A DNA stretch of 64,000 nucleotides, from positions 97,054 to 161,053 of the forward strand of contig NZ_CALUCN010000003.1 in the NCBI RefSeq assembly GCF_943914565.1, read 5' to 3'. Positions 5,686 through 11,276 of the stretch are shown in pieces. The position numbers were made by a program, and so were the translations under genes. The notes under the pieces are model-generated. The model saw nothing but the letters and a program-made list of their open reading frames with translations. It was not told the origin of the DNA and did not search any database. Within the stretch, counting starts at the first letter, position 1, and each line of letters starts with the position of its first letter. This stretch comes from an uncultured Tessaracoccus sp. (GTDB lineage: Bacteria; Actinomycetota; Actinomycetes; Propionibacteriales; Propionibacteriaceae).

Positions 5686-6759
5686 GTGGCACTCACGATT
5701 GGAATCGTCGGCCTTCCCAACGCCGGCAAGTCGACCCTGTTCAACGCGCTGACGCGCAACGACGTGCTCGCCGCGAACTATCCCTTCGCGACGATCGAGC
5801 CCAACGTGGGCGTGGTCGGGGTGCCGGACCCGCGGCTGGCGCGGCTGGCCGAGATCTTCGAGTCGGAGAAGATCATCCCTGCGACGGTGAGCTTCGTCGA
5901 CATCGCGGGCATCGTGAAGGGGGCGAGCCAGGGCGAGGGCATGGGCAACGCGTTCCTCGCCAACATCCGCGAGGCCGACGCGATCTGCCAGGTCACGCGC
6001 GTCTTCGAGGACGACGACATCCTCCACGTCAACGGTGAGGTGAACCCCGCCAACGACATCGACACCATCAACACCGAGCTCATCCTCGCCGACCTGCAGA
6101 CCGTCGACAAGGCGCTGCCGCGGGTGGAGAAGGAGGCGAAGATCAAGAAGGAGACCCGCCCGAAGTTCGAGGCCTTCGCCGCAGCGAAGGAGGCGCTCGA
6201 GGCGGGCGTGCCGGTGCGCAACGCCGACGTGGACCACGAGCTCCTGCGTGAGCTGCACCTGCTCACCGCGAAGCCCTACATCTACGTCTTCAACTGCTCG
6301 CAGGAGGAACTCGCCGACGAAGCCCTCAAGGCTCGCATGCGCGACGTCGTGGCTCCGGCGGAGGCGATCTTCCTCGACGCGAAGTTCGAGGCCGAGCTCG
6401 TCGAGATGGAGGAGGGCGAGGCGCGCGAGTTCCTGGCCGAGGCGGGGATCGACGAGCCGGGCCTGGACGTGCTGGCGCGCGTCGGCTACGAGACGCTGGG
6501 TCTGCAGAGCTTCCTCACCGCAGGCCCGAAGGAGGCCCGCGGCTGGACGATCAAGCGCGGCTGGACCGCCCCCGAGGCCGCAGGCGTGATCCACACCGAC
6601 TTCCAGAAGGGCTTCATCAAGGCCGAGGTGATGACCTTCGACGACCTCGACGAGCTCGGCTCCGAGGCCGCCGTCCAGGCAGCCGGCAAGCTCCGCCTCG
6701 AGGGCAAGGACTACGTCATGGCCGACGGCGACGTCGTGGAGTTCAGGTTTTCAAACTGA
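5686..6759 (+). CDS. ychF: redox-regulated ATPase YchF (Obg-like GTPase family)
   Basis: G1 [20 protein letters not shown]4 NxxD region and C-terminal TGS domain ([11 protein letters not shown]). GTG start in frame. The longer six-frame ORF upstream is GC-rich run-on. Confidence 0.9.
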
Positions 6760-6912
6760 TTCTTGGGGGTTGAAGGGGAGAACTGGAGTCGAGCAGGTGC
6801 AGCTCCATGAAGCTGCGCTGCGGTACTCTGGAGTGGAGCATCTGTTCTGCTCATCGCTCATCGCGGTGGCAGTACCTGGACTGAGGCCTTGGGTATCTGA
6901 GGAGGGGCTGAG

Positions 6913-7263
6913 ATGAGCTCTACCAAGTTCGTCATTCGCATGATCACGGTTGACTGTGAGGACCCAGCGCGGCTTGCGGCGTTCTGGTCTCAAGCCACGG
7001 GGTGCCCTGTAGCTGCTGACTACGGTGACTTCGTCATGGTTGGTTCTGTTCCGGCGCTCGGGTTCCAGCGTGTCCCGGAAACAAGGTCTGGAAAAAACCG
7101 CATTCACTTCGACGGTGGTGGAGAAGACCGTGAAGTCTTGGTTCGTCGGCTCCGTGACCTTGGGGCGACCGAACACGAGACTCGCAGCGTTCCCGGGCTG
7201 ACGTGGACTGTCATGACCGATCCAGAAGGCAACTACTTCTGTGTTGGTAACCCCGAGGGATGA
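6913..7263 (+). CDS. VOC (glyoxalase/bleomycin-resistance fold) family protein
   Basis: 116 aa with the typical VOC pattern. Good SD (GAGGAGG) before the ATG. Lies in a region of clearly lower GC than the surroundings. Confidence 0.75.
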   Translation: MSSTKFVIRMITVDCEDPARLAAFWSQATGCPVAADYGDFVMVGSVPALGFQRVPETRSGKNRIHFDGGGEDREVLVRRLRDLGATEHETRSVPGLTWTVMTDPEGNYFCVGNPEG

Positions 7264-7429
7264 GTACTGTGGGGATGCTCAGCCTGTAATCAGGCAGCGT
7301 GAGCTGTCCATGCAGCCTCACAAGCGGCGATCTTCGCACGTGATAGCTCTATCCATCAAAACTCAGTGGAGTTCCAGTTTACCGTATAGCGATGTTGACT
7401 CAATGCGTCATGTTTGGTCCGTTGGAGGG

Positions 7430-7765
7430 GTGATCAGATCCTTCGGCGACCGTGACACGGAGCTTGTGTAGTTGCGTGAACGGGCTCGGCGGATCGATCC
7501 GAGAATCCATGAGACGGCGAACCGGAAGCTGCATCAGTTGGACGCTGCCGTGTCGCTCAACTCGCTTCGGGTCCCTCCACGCCGGATCGACGAGATTGTG
7601 CATGGCAAGCGGGCGATCACGGCCGACACGGCACTGCATCTGGGGCGCTACTTCGGTGTGGAGCCGCAATTCTGGCTCAACCTGCAGTCGCGCTACGAGC
7701 TCGAGCCGGCGGCGGATCGAGTGGCCGATCAGATCGCTGCCATCGCGCCGCTGCAGACGGCATGA
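7430..7765 (+). pseudogene. higBA: higB-higA remnant: HigB toxin N-terminus fused in frame to HigA antitoxin C-terminus, with an amber codon at 7469-7471
   Basis: VIRSFGDRDTELV-stop-...ARRIDPRIHETANRKLHQLDAAVSLNSLRVPP matches the HigB (PF05015) N-terminal half. It continues directly into PRRIDEIVHGKRAITADTALHLGRYFGVEPQFWLNLQ, the HigA-family HTH C-terminus. The HigB catalytic C-half and the HigA N-half are absent. Confidence 0.55.
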
Positions 7766-8221: not shown

Positions 8222-8640
8222 TCAGTCGAGGGCGCGCAGGGGTTCGAACACTCGCGGATGGCGGTGGTCGAAGCCGGCAATGGGCTGCTGGCGGTCCAGT
8301 CCGGCGATCGTGGACATCTCGTCCTTGGCGAGTTCGAAGTCGAAGAGGTCGATGATGGCGGCGAGGCGATCCGGGTGCGTCGACTTGGCAACTGCTGCTA
8401 CCCCGCGCTGCACGTGCCAGTGCAGGATGACCTGCTGCATCGGTCTGCGTGACCAGGTCGAGGTAGTCGGTGTCGAGTGCGCAGGGAGTCCTCGAAGGCC
8501 TGCGGCACGGCCCGCTGCCGACCCAGCACGGTCAACGGCGCGTGAGCGTGGGTCACGGGAACGGGCCTCCTTCCAGCAAACGGATGCTTCTTGACGCCAC
8601 CGACCCTGCCGGCGAGGAACCCGTTCCCCTACCCCAACAC
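8222..8640 (-). pseudogene. aldo/keto reductase remnant (frameshifts and internal deletion)
   Basis: AFEDSLRTLDTDYLDLV (AKR LGTDYIDLY motif) in one frame. QQVILHWHVQRGVAAVAKSTHPDRLAAIIDLFDFELAKDEMSTIAGLD (AKR C-terminal ALAW...NLAALDLELS region) in another. About 420 bp instead of ~1 kb. Confidence 0.5.
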
Positions 8641-8669: not shown

Positions 8670-9008
8670 CTAGAGGTCCAGCAGTAGGCCAAGCACCTCG
8701 CGAATCTCAGCGAGCAGGGCTGGTCCCACTGCACCCCGGGTGGCGATGAGTCGTTCGACGGAGATTGATCGCACGTGTTGGCACTGGGCGGCTGATGGCG
8801 CCTTGAGCTGGTTCTCCTTGTCTGGCTCAACGTACACTTCCGCGCCGCTGGACCGAATGGTCCGGGTCAGCGGGACAACCTGCACCACGTTCGGCTTGCC
8901 TCGCAGTACGCCAGTGGCGGTTACGACCACGGCTGGTCGCCGGAGGCCCGCCTCGCTCCCGATCGGGGTGCCAAGATCGACCTCGACGATGTCACCCGAG
9001 GTCAGCAT
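8670..9008 (-). CDS. mazF: type II toxin MazF/PemK family endoribonuclease
   Basis: GDIVEVDLGTPIGSEAGLRRPAVVV and downstream conserved blocks typical of MazF/PemK. Start at internal Met, overlapping the antitoxin 3' end. Confidence 0.8.
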   Translation of the reverse strand: MLTSGDIVEVDLGTPIGSEAGLRRPAVVVTATGVLRGKPNVVQVVPLTRTIRSSGAEVYVEPDKENQLKAPSAAQCQHVRSISVERLIATRGAVGPALLAEIREVLGLLLDL

Positions 9009-9189
9009 CGAGCCAAGTCTCTTCCTCATCGGTGAGCTTGGCGCTCAACTCCTGCCCCATCGACAGCTGCCTCAACGCACGCAGGGCCCGATCGACCGTC
9101 TGGTCGATGGTCTCGTGGCGTTGCTGGGCCAACCTCGTGATGCGGCTGTGTGTCTGGCGGCTGACCCGGATGGTGGTGGTGTCGCGCAT
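8992..9189 (-). CDS. mazE: MazE-like antitoxin (small DNA-binding protein)
   Basis: 65 aa ORF immediately upstream of and overlapping mazF by 17 bp. Basic N-terminus (RVSRQTHSRITRLAQQ) and acidic C-terminus, as expected for an antitoxin. Confidence 0.6.
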   Translation of the reverse strand: MRDTTTIRVSRQTHSRITRLAQQRHETIDQTVDRALRALRQLSMGQELSAKLTDEEETWLDADLG

Positions 9190-9226: not shown

Positions 9227-9476
9227 TGGGAGGTGGTGCGACGAACAGCTTGGCGGGTTCGGCTCCGGACGTTCTGCTTCGCCCGCCGGGTGGTTCAAGG
9301 CGGCCGCGCGCAGATGGTTCTTCACGTGGGGGTGCGGTGGAGTTCCGCTTCACCGTGTGCGTACGTGGGTCTGGGGGCACGCACGCCTCGGCGTAGGTCT
9401 GGTCGTGGCGTGCGCGTGGCGCGCGGCCCAGCCGTCCTGGGAGCGGGCTGCATGCTGTGGCCAAGGGCTCCGCCGC

Positions 9477-9755
9477 TCAGGCGACGCGGGAGCCGTAACG
9501 CTGGCGGGCTGCTTCACCGGAGGTGCCGACGAAGGTGCCGATGTTCGCCCAGGACATCCCCGAAGCGCGTGCGCTCCTGACCGCTTCGAGCAGATGTCGT
9601 TCAGCGGCTGATTGTTCGGCCACGGCGTCGCGGAGTCGACGGATGGCCGAAGGGTCGAGTTCGTGCTCAGCGTCGGGTTCGTAGTTCTCGAACCGTGCGG
9701 CGAGCTCGTCGGCATGAGCCAGGATCTGCTCGACTGTGCGCGGCATGGTCATCAC
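9477..9755 (-). CDS. small HTH-containing protein, putative antitoxin of the upstream toxin-like gene
   Basis: 92 aa. Acidic N-half, C-terminal HTH-like segment (SGMSWANIGTFVGTSGEAARQRY). 4-bp overlap with the upstream gene. Last gene of a three-gene overlapping operon. Confidence 0.5.
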   Translation of the reverse strand: MMTMPRTVEQILAHADELAARFENYEPDAEHELDPSAIRRLRDAVAEQSAAERHLLEAVRSARASGMSWANIGTFVGTSGEAARQRYGSRVA

Positions 9756-10102
9756 CTCAGAAACCTCTCACGGGCTCGCGTCGCATGGACGATGACGAAG
9801 GCGGTGGAGCCCTGGACGTAGCCGACCTCAAGGAAGAGGGCGGCCTGATTGGGGCCGACGATCATCGTGAACCCGTCCCCAAGATCCCAAGCGCGCAGGG
9901 GGTTCCTGTAGGCGTGAAGGATCTCGTCTTCCGTCAGCCCGGGCCCCAGTGCTGACTGGGCGATGATCGGCTCGTCCACGATTCCAAGGTACCTTGTCGT
10001 TGTGTCGGGCTCAACGGCGAGGGTGGTGCGTCGTCCGGGAGTCTCGGATGCGGGGTGCTTGGCCAGAGATGCCGACGCGTCCGCGATAACGACGTCGCTC
10101 AC
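9752..10102 (-). CDS. DUF497/BrnT-like (RelE-fold) putative toxin
   Basis: C-terminal 70 aa (AYRNPLRAW...FTMIVGPNQAALFLEVGYVQGSTAFVIVHATRARERF) resembles the BrnT family pattern (F-DP ... VV-T-R-...IRIISARKA..E), recalled from memory. GTG start overlapping the upstream stop (GTGA). The six-frame ORF is longer but its upstream part is GC run-on. Confidence 0.5.
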   Translation of the reverse strand: MSDVVIADASASLAKHPASETPGRRTTLAVEPDTTTRYLGIVDEPIIAQSALGPGLTEDEILHAYRNPLRAWDLGDGFTMIVGPNQAALFLEVGYVQGSTAFVIVHATRARERFLR

Positions 10103-10593
10103 CCGATCATGTAGGCGAGGCCCAGCCCACGCGTCGCTATGTCCCGTGCGAACGTGCGCGCCTGGCCGAAGTATTCGAGGAAGTAGTCGCGGTCGTCTTC
10201 GTCCAACGTCGCGCAGAAGGCGTCGAGCTCCTCGGGCGTGACGCTGTCCAGGTCGTCCGCGATGGCTGCGACGGTGGCCACGTCGAGCACGGCGAGGTGC
10301 GGGTCCCAGGCCCGGTCGGTCAGCACCAGCGTGACCTGCCCCTGGAACAGCTGATACGCAGGGCGCGCCTCGCCCCCGTCGGGCCAGCTGAAGCGTTGCA
10401 GGATGGACCAACACTTGTCGAGGTAGAGCATCTCCGGCTTCGGGCGGTCGGTGAAGGCCCAGTGGTGCTCGTCGATGGGCTCGAGGCCCCACGCATCGGC
10501 GAGCGGGTCATCGGACATGACGCACCACGGGTCGCGCCGAGCGGCCTCCACCATGGCGGGTTCGACTGGATAGGCGTAGTAACGGATTCCCAT
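10099..10593 (-). CDS. DUF1877 (YfbM-like) family protein
   Basis: Starts MGIRYYAYP (YfbM-like MGM-GYF start). LDKCWSILQRF and the C-terminal DYFLEYFGQ...G pattern resemble the YfbM family, recalled from memory. First gene of the three-gene operon. Confidence 0.55.
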   Translation of the reverse strand: MGIRYYAYPVEPAMVEAARRDPWCVMSDDPLADAWGLEPIDEHHWAFTDRPKPEMLYLDKCWSILQRFSWPDGGEARPAYQLFQGQVTLVLTDRAWDPHLAVLDVATVAAIADDLDSVTPEELDAFCATLDEDDRDYFLEYFGQARTFARDIATRGLGLAYMIG

Positions 10594-10736
10594 GTCTGCA
10601 AGATGGCAGTGGCGAAGGCCTGCTGCCCGCGCAGCGGCGAATCTGTGGAGAACTCCACGGCCGAGCACCCCGCAGGCCTCGCGCGCTGCTCTGGCGTGAC
10701 GAGCCCCGGGATTCGGGAACTGGGCCGCGGTTCTGC

Positions 10737-11276
10737 CTACTCGCCGACCTGGCCGTCGATGGCCTCTCGGAGGAGGTCCGCATGGCCGTTGTGCCGTGCG
10801 TACTCCTCGATCATGTGGGTGAGCACCCACCGAAGGCTGGGTGCGTGCCCGTCCGGCCAACGGCGACGCGTTGGTTGCGCCAACCCGTCACGGGCGCGGG
10901 CCGCTTCGGCATTGGAGCGGGCACGCGCGACGGCGTGCCGCCACAGGTCGTGGAGTGTTTCCGGGGTGTCGTCGGCAGCGGACTCCCATGCCCAGTCCGG
11001 CGTCGTGGCCCAATCGACTGAGGCCCAGGGTTCGCGGAGGGGCCGGTCGTACAGCCAGTGGTCGAACCAGTGGTCCTCGACGTGGGCGAGGTGCTTCATC
11101 AAGCCGCCGAGCGTCATGGTGCTGGGCGACAGCGGCTGCGCCAGCTGCTCCGCAGTGAGGCCGTCGCACTTCCAGGCGAACGTTGCTCGCAGGAAGTCGA
11201 GGAAGCCGGTCAGGGTGTCCCATTCATCGCCGTCGAGAGGAGGCTCTGGTCGGCCGTGTTGATCGATGTCTGGCAT
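10737..11276 (-). CDS. DinB_2/DUF664 family protein (mycothiol maleylpyruvate isomerase-like N-terminal fold)
   Basis: Four-helix-bundle signature with the C-terminal MIEEYARHNGHADLLRE motif typical of DUF664/DinB_2. Confidence 0.8.
   Translation of the reverse strand: MPDIDQHGRPEPPLDGDEWDTLTGFLDFLRATFAWKCDGLTAEQLAQPLSPSTMTLGGLMKHLAHVEDHWFDHWLYDRPLREPWASVDWATTPDWAWESAADDTPETLHDLWRHAVARARSNAEAARARDGLAQPTRRRWPDGHAPSLRWVLTHMIEEYARHNGHADLLREAIDGQVGE

Follow-up and report, generated by a model that had tools for sequence, protein, structure and literature searches.

RelS-RelI of Mycobacterium tuberculosis (Rv2663-Rv2664) is a toxin-first type II toxin-antitoxin (TA) system with two components, described by Han et al. 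(Nucleic Acids Res, June 2026; PMC13284704) and represented by the structure PDB 9SDC. In brief, RelS is an RNase of an atypical, RelE/BrnT-like kind whose target is the 16S rRNA of assembled 30S subunits, cut at C1520/U1521 within the anti-Shine-Dalgarno region, and RelI is an actinomycete-specific helix-turn-helix (HTH) protein, related to ClpC2, that lays an N-terminal helix over the RelS active site (PMC13284704). Here we describe a locus in a 64 kb stretch of DNA from an uncultured Tessaracoccus sp.; this whole stretch is called the window, and all positions are numbered within it. The locus is an ordinary, degenerate member of this recently characterized family. We consider it likely that it is a two-gene RelS-RelI module with a disarmed toxin and a promoter of its own, lying beside an independent gene, g1.

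As first called, the locus consists of three small minus-strand open reading frames (ORFs), all of which are present: g1 (10593..10099, ATG start, 164 aa), g2 (10102..9752, GTG start, 116 aa) and g3 (9755..9477, GTG start, 92 aa). The NCBI annotation of the same genome gives 164 aa for g1, 116 aa for g2 (WP_296136819.1) and 91 aa for g3. The string GTGA is read at both gene junctions, g1/g2 and g2/g3. The original prediction took these strings as 4-bp overlaps that tie a DUF1877 protein, a toxin and an HTH protein into one obligatorily co-translated cassette. No paralogues of g1, g2 or g3 were found elsewhere in the window, and none of the three proteins matched a PADLOC defence-system model.

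Identification of relS and relI

Sequence comparison shows that genes 2 and 3 are homologous to the toxin RelS and the antitoxin RelI of M. tuberculosis, respectively. In phmmer searches of PDB sequences, residues 49-114 of the 116-aa g2 ORF match chain C of 9SDC ('Toxin', E 7e-5) and residues 14-89 of g3 match chain A ('RelI', E 8e-8). A profile built from g2 homologues matches chain C with E 3e-8, with KHG aligned to KHG. The PHROG profile phrog_17063, annotated 'toxin', covers residues 2-75 of a 75-aa RelS (1e-15). For g3, the PHROG matches are phrog_18428 (2e-22) and phrog_686 ('HTH', 6e-7), with further HTH support from phrog_7061; the phage HTH families match the C-terminal half of the protein. 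The two homologues are relS at 9752..9979 (minus strand, GTG start, 75 aa) and relI at 9477..9746 (minus strand, ATG start, 89 aa). The 9SDC and PHROG matches thus bear out the proposal of a toxin-first pair, in which a small HTH protein comes after a RelE/BrnT-like toxin. That the two genes belong to the RelS-RelI family, and that the toxin has lost two residues essential for toxicity, had been missed.

The more specific family assignments that had been expected were not recovered. A search of g2 and g3 against Pfam and NCBIfam found no family, and the identification came from the PDB sequence search alone. Neither PF04365 (BrnT/DUF497) for g2 nor BrnA for g3 gave a match at E <= 1, and g3 matched neither HTH_3/XRE-type nor any other Pfam HTH family. 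The HTH character of g3 comes only from the PHROG matches (phrog_686 and phrog_7061) and from the HHpred link to ClpC2 given in PMC13284704.

PF04365 gives weak scores for some relatives with 68-71% identity to Rv2663, and phage copies of the RelS family of the window carry the annotation 'BrnT-like toxin'. The most apt placement of RelS is therefore on a divergent branch of BrnT/DUF497, and by sequence the tie of the window toxin to PF04365 is transitive only, via the relatives of Rv2663.

We found 344 relS homologues, most of them 75-78 aa long. For comparison, 80 RelS loci, each from a distinct species (L011-L090), were fetched. A RelI homologue lies directly 3' of relS in 79 of the 80 loci.

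RelS-like toxins about 53% identical to the window family are encoded in 27 Gordonia phage records. In Gordonia phage Wrigley (31374-31610), the sole record examined, the toxin gene adjoins an integrase gene, and a RelI-like gene comes after the toxin gene. Similar toxins are found on Rhodococcus and Actinomyces plasmids. The copies on phages and plasmids indicate that the RelS-RelI family is mobile.

The start of relS

Comparison with homologues places the start of a 75-aa relS at 9979, 119 nt 3' of g1. The length is exactly 75 aa in 54 of 121 homologue clusters, and 76-78 aa in most of the others. The intervening 119 nt (9980..10098, minus strand) are a non-coding spacer, which had been read, both in the original prediction and by the NCBI Prokaryotic Genome Annotation Pipeline (PGAP), as 41 codons at the N-terminal end of gene 2.

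A sister genome, GCA_029984135 (L005), carries the same three genes with a g1 that is 88% identical. Here the codon overlapping the g1 stop is CTG, versus GTG in the window. Over the first 77 nt past the g1 stop the identity between the two genomes is 68.8%, and the mismatches fall 9/8/7 on the three codon positions, with no periodicity; for the 119-nt spacer the values are 68% and 9/10/8. The corresponding figures are 90.7% identity with mismatches 11/8/27 for g1, 90.4% with 4/5/13 for relS and 94.4% with 2/0/13 for relI. Divergence without codon periodicity in the spacer, set against the third-position excess in the genes, indicates that the 41-codon extension is non-coding. Propioniferax innocua has an in-frame TAA four codons ahead of its relS ATG, and an in-frame stop is found at the same place upstream of the relS start in about 21 of the 80 species. 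The exact 75-aa window protein has no record among the contig gene calls.

With g2 taken as 75 aa from 9979, the 4-bp overlap between g1 and g2 becomes an over-extended ORF in GC-rich DNA. The GTGA strings are thus real at both junctions, but the one between g1 and g2 is no gene overlap and the one between g2 and g3 probably none either, being a composite of a Shine-Dalgarno sequence and a stop codon. Obligatory co-translation of g1 and g2 does not hold, given a relS that begins 119 nt downstream behind its own conserved promoter and an overlapping GTG that is CTG in the sister genome. There is a lesson for annotation here: in a high-GC genome, an upstream in-frame GTG led to a 116-aa call, by the NCBI pipeline too, and to an apparent 4-bp overlap.

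The segment 'ASASLAKHPAS' near the N-terminus of the 116-aa ORF was considered as a duplicated or displaced active-site segment. It was dropped, as the stretch is non-coding by its divergence pattern.

A conserved promoter and probable operator

On the minus strand, the sequence before the GTG at 9979 reads TTGAGC, 17 nt, TACCTT, GGAATC, GTG. The -35-like hexamer TTGAGC (10009..10014, minus strand) was read directly from the sequence and is kept in L005 and P. innocua. The -10-like hexamer TACCTT (9991..9986, minus strand) starts exactly 12 nt before the relS GTG and lies inside a perfect 12-bp palindrome, CAAGGTACCTTG, at 9985..9996, which its conservation across loci marks as a probable operator. 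The pattern CAAGNTANCTTG has one match in the window, the palindrome itself, with 0.02 expected by chance.

The element is a family trait. CAAGnTAnCTT[G/T] is present at the same position in 74 of the 80 RelS loci, with about 2 bits at 10 of the 12 positions, and TAnCTT stands exactly 12 nt before the ATG, GTG or TTG that opens a 70-80-aa toxin ORF in 59 of these 74. In 427 kb of fetched loci all matches to the motif fall at one site per locus and none elsewhere. A column consensus T-t-g-c-c is seen about 17 nt upstream of the TAnCTT hexamer in the 74 loci. The 'SYLG' motif of over-extended database proteins is this palindrome in translation. On mobile elements, the palindrome is present twice in Gordonia phage Wrigley and once on the Rhodococcus jostii plasmid pRHL3.

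In the M. tuberculosis clade this place is taken by a different inverted repeat. In M. tuberculosis there is an inverted repeat, TGTAAAGGT/ACGTTTACA (L179 1481-1499), that overlaps a TAACGT located 12 nt before the annotated GTG, with an additional half-site upstream. The counterpart in Rhodococcus ruber is CGTAAAGG-TAT-CCTTTACG. In all, inverted repeats specific to their clades were located in the window (9985-9996), L011-L090, L171 (1451-1491), L172, L173 (1175-1193), L179 (1465-1499) and L181-L184. By this distribution, the whole RelS-RelI family, Rv2663 included, bears a clade-specific inverted repeat over a -10-like hexamer that stands 12 nt ahead of the toxin start. A second upstream copy of the repeat is seen in some RelS loci, and in L183 and L184 the inverted repeat occurs in two copies.

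Leaderless transcripts with a TANNNT -10 element are common in Actinomycetota. The hexamer of the window spans positions -12 to -7, counted from the first nucleotide of the GTG, and the relS mRNA is therefore probably leaderless. The relS-relI operon would be driven by its own promoter in the spacer, separate from g1. The CAAG/CTTG arms show more conservation than a -10 element calls for, suggesting a dimeric DNA-binding protein, and the palindrome is probably an operator for autoregulation. The repressor would be a dimer, most likely RelI or the RelS-RelI complex, that autoregulates the operon. The family-wide inverted repeat at a promoter of leaderless geometry is a concrete candidate operator, unreported by the published study.

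The relS-relI junction

The start of relI was also moved. Only the start at 9746 (MPRT...) is universally conserved, with ATG in 78 of 79 loci and GTG in the remaining locus. Across the loci its distance past the relS stop is 5 nt, rarely 4-6 nt, and it is preceded at proper spacing by a conserved Shine-Dalgarno sequence, GAGGTGAT (9751..9758, minus strand), that spans the relS stop TGA at 9754..9752. PGAP chose an in-frame ATG that 17 loci lack. The GTG overlapping the relS stop is nearly universal, but it is part of GAGGTGAT, and the GTGA between g2 and g3 is thus a by-product of the Shine-Dalgarno sequence and the stop codon. The 89-aa form of relI is the commonest gene call (23 contigs). 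The gene is most probably 9746..9477, encoding 89 aa. Judged by its mismatches to L005 (2/0/13), relI is apparently intact and under purifying selection.

The junction aGGTGAtgannATG is kept in 79 of the 80 loci and in M. tuberculosis (L179 1727-1737), and the consensus across the 80 loci is aGGTGAtgannATGCC(n)CG. Translation of relI would start from the ATG 5 nt past the relS stop by means of a strong Shine-Dalgarno sequence contained in the 3' end of relS. It is plausible that relS and relI are tightly coupled, by a route other than a 4-bp overlap.

The sequence GAGGTGAT is complementary to the 3' end of 16S rRNA, AUCACCUC. In the numbering of PMC13284704 the RelS cut falls behind the second C of ACC, so that for this shifted and extended Shine-Dalgarno sequence six of the eight pairing bases (AUCACC) lie 5' of the cut. 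A canonical GGAGG site would keep two pairing bases after the cut, versus six for GAGGTGAT. A leaderless relS would not need the anti-Shine-Dalgarno for its translation, and the operon might then stay translatable on cut ribosomes: relS and relI would continue to be made while mRNAs led by GGAGG are shut off. It should be noted that the codons AGG-TGA also constrain the sequence of GAGGTGAT, a caveat to the idea of a cleavage-resistant Shine-Dalgarno. The Shine-Dalgarno sequence predicted to keep most of its pairing after the RelS cut, and the palindrome promoter of leaderless geometry, are family-wide observations and not special to the window.

These ideas can be joined into one scheme, in which the family operon is translatable on RelS-cut ribosomes, the clade-specific palindrome over the -10 element gives RelI autoregulation, and the window copy is a disarmed immunity module. 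We hold this scheme as a whole to be speculative and rather doubtful.

State of the toxin

The RelS of the window has lost half of its catalytic set. Of K9, H10, H64 and R69 in M. tuberculosis RelS, the equivalents of H64 and R69 are kept, as H65 and R70, and both K9 and H10 are replaced: in the alignment Gly12-Pro13 stands opposite K9-H10, encoded by codons 12-13, GGG CCC (9941..9946, minus strand). A His occupies the H10 position in all 119 other homologue clusters, preceded by Lys or Arg in about 115, and Gly-Pro is unique among the 121 clusters. L005 and P. innocua have CTC AAG CAT GGG where the window has CTG GGG CCC GGG, which amounts to five changes in 7 nt within a near-identical context. 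As it recurs on 13 and 8 independent contigs, the Gly-Pro variant does not stem from faulty assembly. A further change in the window branch, M67T, falls at a column with at least 90% conservation among the sequences.

K9A, H10A and H64A severely reduce the toxicity of RelS, and K9A and H10A abolish it in M. tuberculosis (PMC13284704). In vitro, H10A is inactive, with translation inhibition and 16S rRNA cleavage both lost, and K9A is non-toxic in two hosts (PMC13284704). As each residue is essential singly and both are replaced, the window RelS is probably dead, and very probably non-toxic.

An alternative is that the module is fully functional and that the Gly-Pro RelS keeps its RNase activity or toxicity through His65, Arg70 and other basic residues. 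The equivalents of H64 and R69 are indeed conserved, the differences between relS and its L005 counterpart are mostly at third codon positions, the promoter, Shine-Dalgarno sequence and relI are all intact, and Thr, Gln and Asn occur naturally, if rarely, at the Lys position within the family. The His, however, is invariant in all other clusters, and either substitution by itself suffices: H10A alone ends toxicity, translation inhibition and 16S cleavage, and K9A alone is non-toxic in both hosts (PMC13284704). In the window both residues are altered, one of them to proline, by five clustered nucleotide changes that resemble a selected or tolerated knock-out. We therefore regard a functional toxin as unlikely.

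Several points weigh against the reading of the locus as a disarmed RelS-RelI module with a promoter of its own. The published study reports no inverted repeats upstream of relS-relI and no evidence of DNA binding, and it suggests that the RelI HTH is taken up by contacts with RelS (PMC13284704). A scan of positions 9300-10900 with the E. coli consensus found no promoter; a scan of this type is blind to TACCTT, since only three of its six positions match TATAAT. The call of the -10 element thus draws on the general TANNNT rule for actinobacteria together with conservation. A scan for minus-strand terminators over the same interval found none, so none lies between g1 and relS and co-transcription by read-through from g1 is possible. 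Outside codons 12-13, the differences of relS from L005 are biased to third positions, which implies either that the inactivation is recent or that the protein has a non-catalytic role. Finally, with H65 and R70 retained, residual activity is possible by sequence.

If the toxin is disarmed, the window RelS may have a role such as co-repression. RelI and the operator may be retained as an anti-addiction or immunity module against RelS borne by phages or plasmids.

Decay of the toxin is seen in other species as well. About one in ten of their RelS loci has a decayed toxin with the promoter motif kept. A premature stop or frameshift interrupts relS at L033 and L063 (both Tessaracoccus metagenome-assembled genomes), L070, L080, L081 and L087; the start codon is lost (AAG) at L021, and at L060 the His is changed to Tyr. 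RelI homologues are still found at the decayed-toxin loci L033, L063, L080, L081 and L087. Recurrent loss of RelS with RelI kept bears on the decay of chromosomal TA systems and on orphan antitoxins as immunity against mobile copies.

The substitution that removes the Lys-His pair (9941-9949, minus strand) also makes GGGGCCCGGG, in which an ApaI site (GGGCCC) and a SmaI site (CCCGGG) overlap. This is probably coincidental in GC-rich DNA.

Gene 1 and the three-gene arrangement

The assignment of g1 to DUF1877/YfbM holds. The protein matches PF08974 over its full length at borderline score (21.7 bits, with the cut-off at 22; E 2.5e-4; protein residues 1-157, profile positions 1-158 of 163), and 16 of 18 aligned members of the g1 family match PF08974 at E <= 0.01, the best at 3.8e-7. 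An AlphaFold2 model of g1 has a predicted local distance difference test score (pLDDT) of 92.1. The top PDB match of the model in Foldseek, and the only convincing one, is E. coli YfbM (1RYL_B, probability 1.00, E 4.5e-3, template modelling (TM) scores 0.52/0.56), and its other PDB matches have E > 0.1. YfbM (1RYL), the type member of DUF1877, is thus the fold counterpart of g1 at 13% sequence identity; a search of PDB sequences with the g1-family profile did not detect it by sequence. The family is large, with 535 homologues in which the motifs MGIRYYAY, DPLADAW and LYLDK-W are invariant. By the model and the profile matches, g1 has the DUF1877/YfbM fold; it is a stand-alone gene from a large, well-conserved actinobacterial family. 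In the literature on DUF1877/YfbM we found nothing functional and no link to TA systems.

The two gene families do not travel together. No g1 homologue was found within 3 kb of RelS-RelI in any of the 80 species' loci (by tblastn and by a family hidden Markov model run on six-frame ORFs). Conversely, neither RelS, RelI nor the palindrome was found near g1-family genes in any of 80 metagenome loci, 63 of which have at least 700 nt of downstream sequence. The three-gene arrangement is common only to one close relative (L005/L006), at the orthologous position. A 147-aa gene upstream of relS in P. innocua was considered as a g1 homologue and rejected, as it shows no similarity. Gene 1 is a neighbour independent of relS-relI.

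The original prediction had seen in the three genes a translationally coupled tripartite cassette, with the DUF1877 protein as an obligatory third component next to a 116-aa toxin and an HTH antitoxin. In its favour, both GTGA strings can be read in the sequence, PGAP made the same 116-aa call, the sister genome has the same genes in the same order, and no terminator separates g1 from g2. Against this, the overlapping start codon is CTG in the sister genome, the extension evolves as non-coding DNA and holds in-frame stops in many species, 'SYLG' is only the translated palindrome, and the characterized family has two components (PMC13284704). Co-occurrence is 0 of 80 in each direction, which is essentially the finding, a trio that never co-occurs in other genomes, that the prediction had itself named as refuting. 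We consider this model largely refuted already and a tripartite cassette very improbable. With this false lead removed, the window adds one degenerate Tessaracoccus copy to the RelS-RelI family.

Genomic neighbourhood

The stretch that holds gene 1 and the relS-relI module, bounded by ychF and a PMT_2 glycosyltransferase gene, is variable. The frame GNAT-YchF ... RelI-RelS-g1 ... PMT_2 is common to the window and L005, and the inserted genes differ: in the window they are a MazEF-like pair, a glyoxalase gene, an aldo-keto reductase fragment and a DinB/mycothiol-S-transferase (MST) gene, and in L005 a SoFic-like gene. This interval is a variable spot that collects small cassettes.

Directly 3' of relI is the MazF/PemK module (8670-9189, minus strand), made up of a MazF/PemK toxin (8670-9029, minus strand; PF02452, 63.6 bits) preceded by a 65-aa antitoxin-like ORF (8992-9189, minus strand). 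L005 lacks this module and has the SoFic-like gene there. Further along are a 72-aa ORF (8222-8440, minus strand), probably the remnant of a gene, whose match to the aldo/keto reductase family profile is confined to the final ~50 of its 291 positions (240-289), and a glyoxalase-like gene (6913-7263, plus strand). On the other side, the DinB/MST gene (10737-11276, minus strand; PF04978, 145 bits) lies between g1 and the PMT_2 gene. It is absent at the orthologous position of L005 and thus represents a further indel of the variable stretch.

The locus had been placed in a TA-rich island of lower GC content. The TA part stands, with the MazF/PemK module next door. The GC part is less apt for the cassette, which has a GC content of 0.655-0.675 against about 0.67-0.75 in the flanks; the true dip, to 0.57-0.58, is at ~6700-7600, around the glyoxalase-like gene.

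Homologues of g1 are also found beside other types of TA genes, and it could be proposed that g1 is loosely and functionally tied to TA modules in general, as an accessory or modulator that is neither specific to RelS-RelI nor translationally coupled. A VapBC pair lies upstream of the g1 homologue in L007-L010, a FitA-like ribbon-helix-helix (RHH) and PIN pair downstream in Gordonia, and a MarR/HEPN pair upstream in Tersicoccus; the loci with such neighbours are L007-L010, L174-L176 and L177. Among 113 neighbouring ORFs counted at 56 metagenome g1 loci, drawn from L091-L170, five had PIN, two Phd/YefM, five YchF and six LytR_cpsA_psr domains, as raw counts. Most loci, however, have no TA neighbour (at the Ruania g1-homologue locus none was found), and position, orientation and spacing differ between loci. 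The housekeeping neighbours YchF and LytR_cpsA_psr are conserved, as in a chromosomal variable spot that gathers mobile TA cassettes. This mixture of TA and housekeeping neighbours fits a hotspot better than a dedicated partner, and we find an accessory role for g1 quite improbable.

Comparison with known systems

Three-component TA systems do exist, an example being the toxin-antitoxin-chaperone (TAC) system HigB1-HigA1-SecB-like of M. tuberculosis. The present locus resembles it in its three small neighbouring genes of one orientation, one of which encodes a toxin of the RelE superfamily. A genuine third component is found together with its pair from genome to genome, whereas here co-occurrence is nil in both directions and the pair has its own promoter.

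BrnT-BrnA of Brucella abortus (PF04365 and BrnA) is similar in its toxin-first order and in its small RelE-fold RNase with a Lys-His pair (PMC13284704). It differs in that RelI is HTH/ClpC2-related and not of the BrnA type, and in that RelS cuts 16S rRNA, not free mRNA (PMC13284704).

RelS-RelI of M. tuberculosis and the pair in the window are homologous in both proteins. In each the toxin comes first, the toxin is about 75-78 aa and the antitoxin about 85-89 aa long, the antitoxin starts a few nucleotides past the toxin stop after GAGGTGAT, an inverted repeat lies over a TAnnnT hexamer 12 nt before the toxin start, and the equivalents of H64 and R69 are present. The toxin cores are only about 35% identical. 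The palindrome differs by clade, being CAAGnTAnCTTG in that of the window and GTAAAGG..CCTTTAC in that of M. tuberculosis. The neighbours also differ: they are a DUF1877 gene and a MazEF module for the window copy, and small hypothetical genes and a transposase gene for Rv2663. Finally, the toxin of the window has Gly-Pro in place of the essential K9-H10 of M. tuberculosis RelS.

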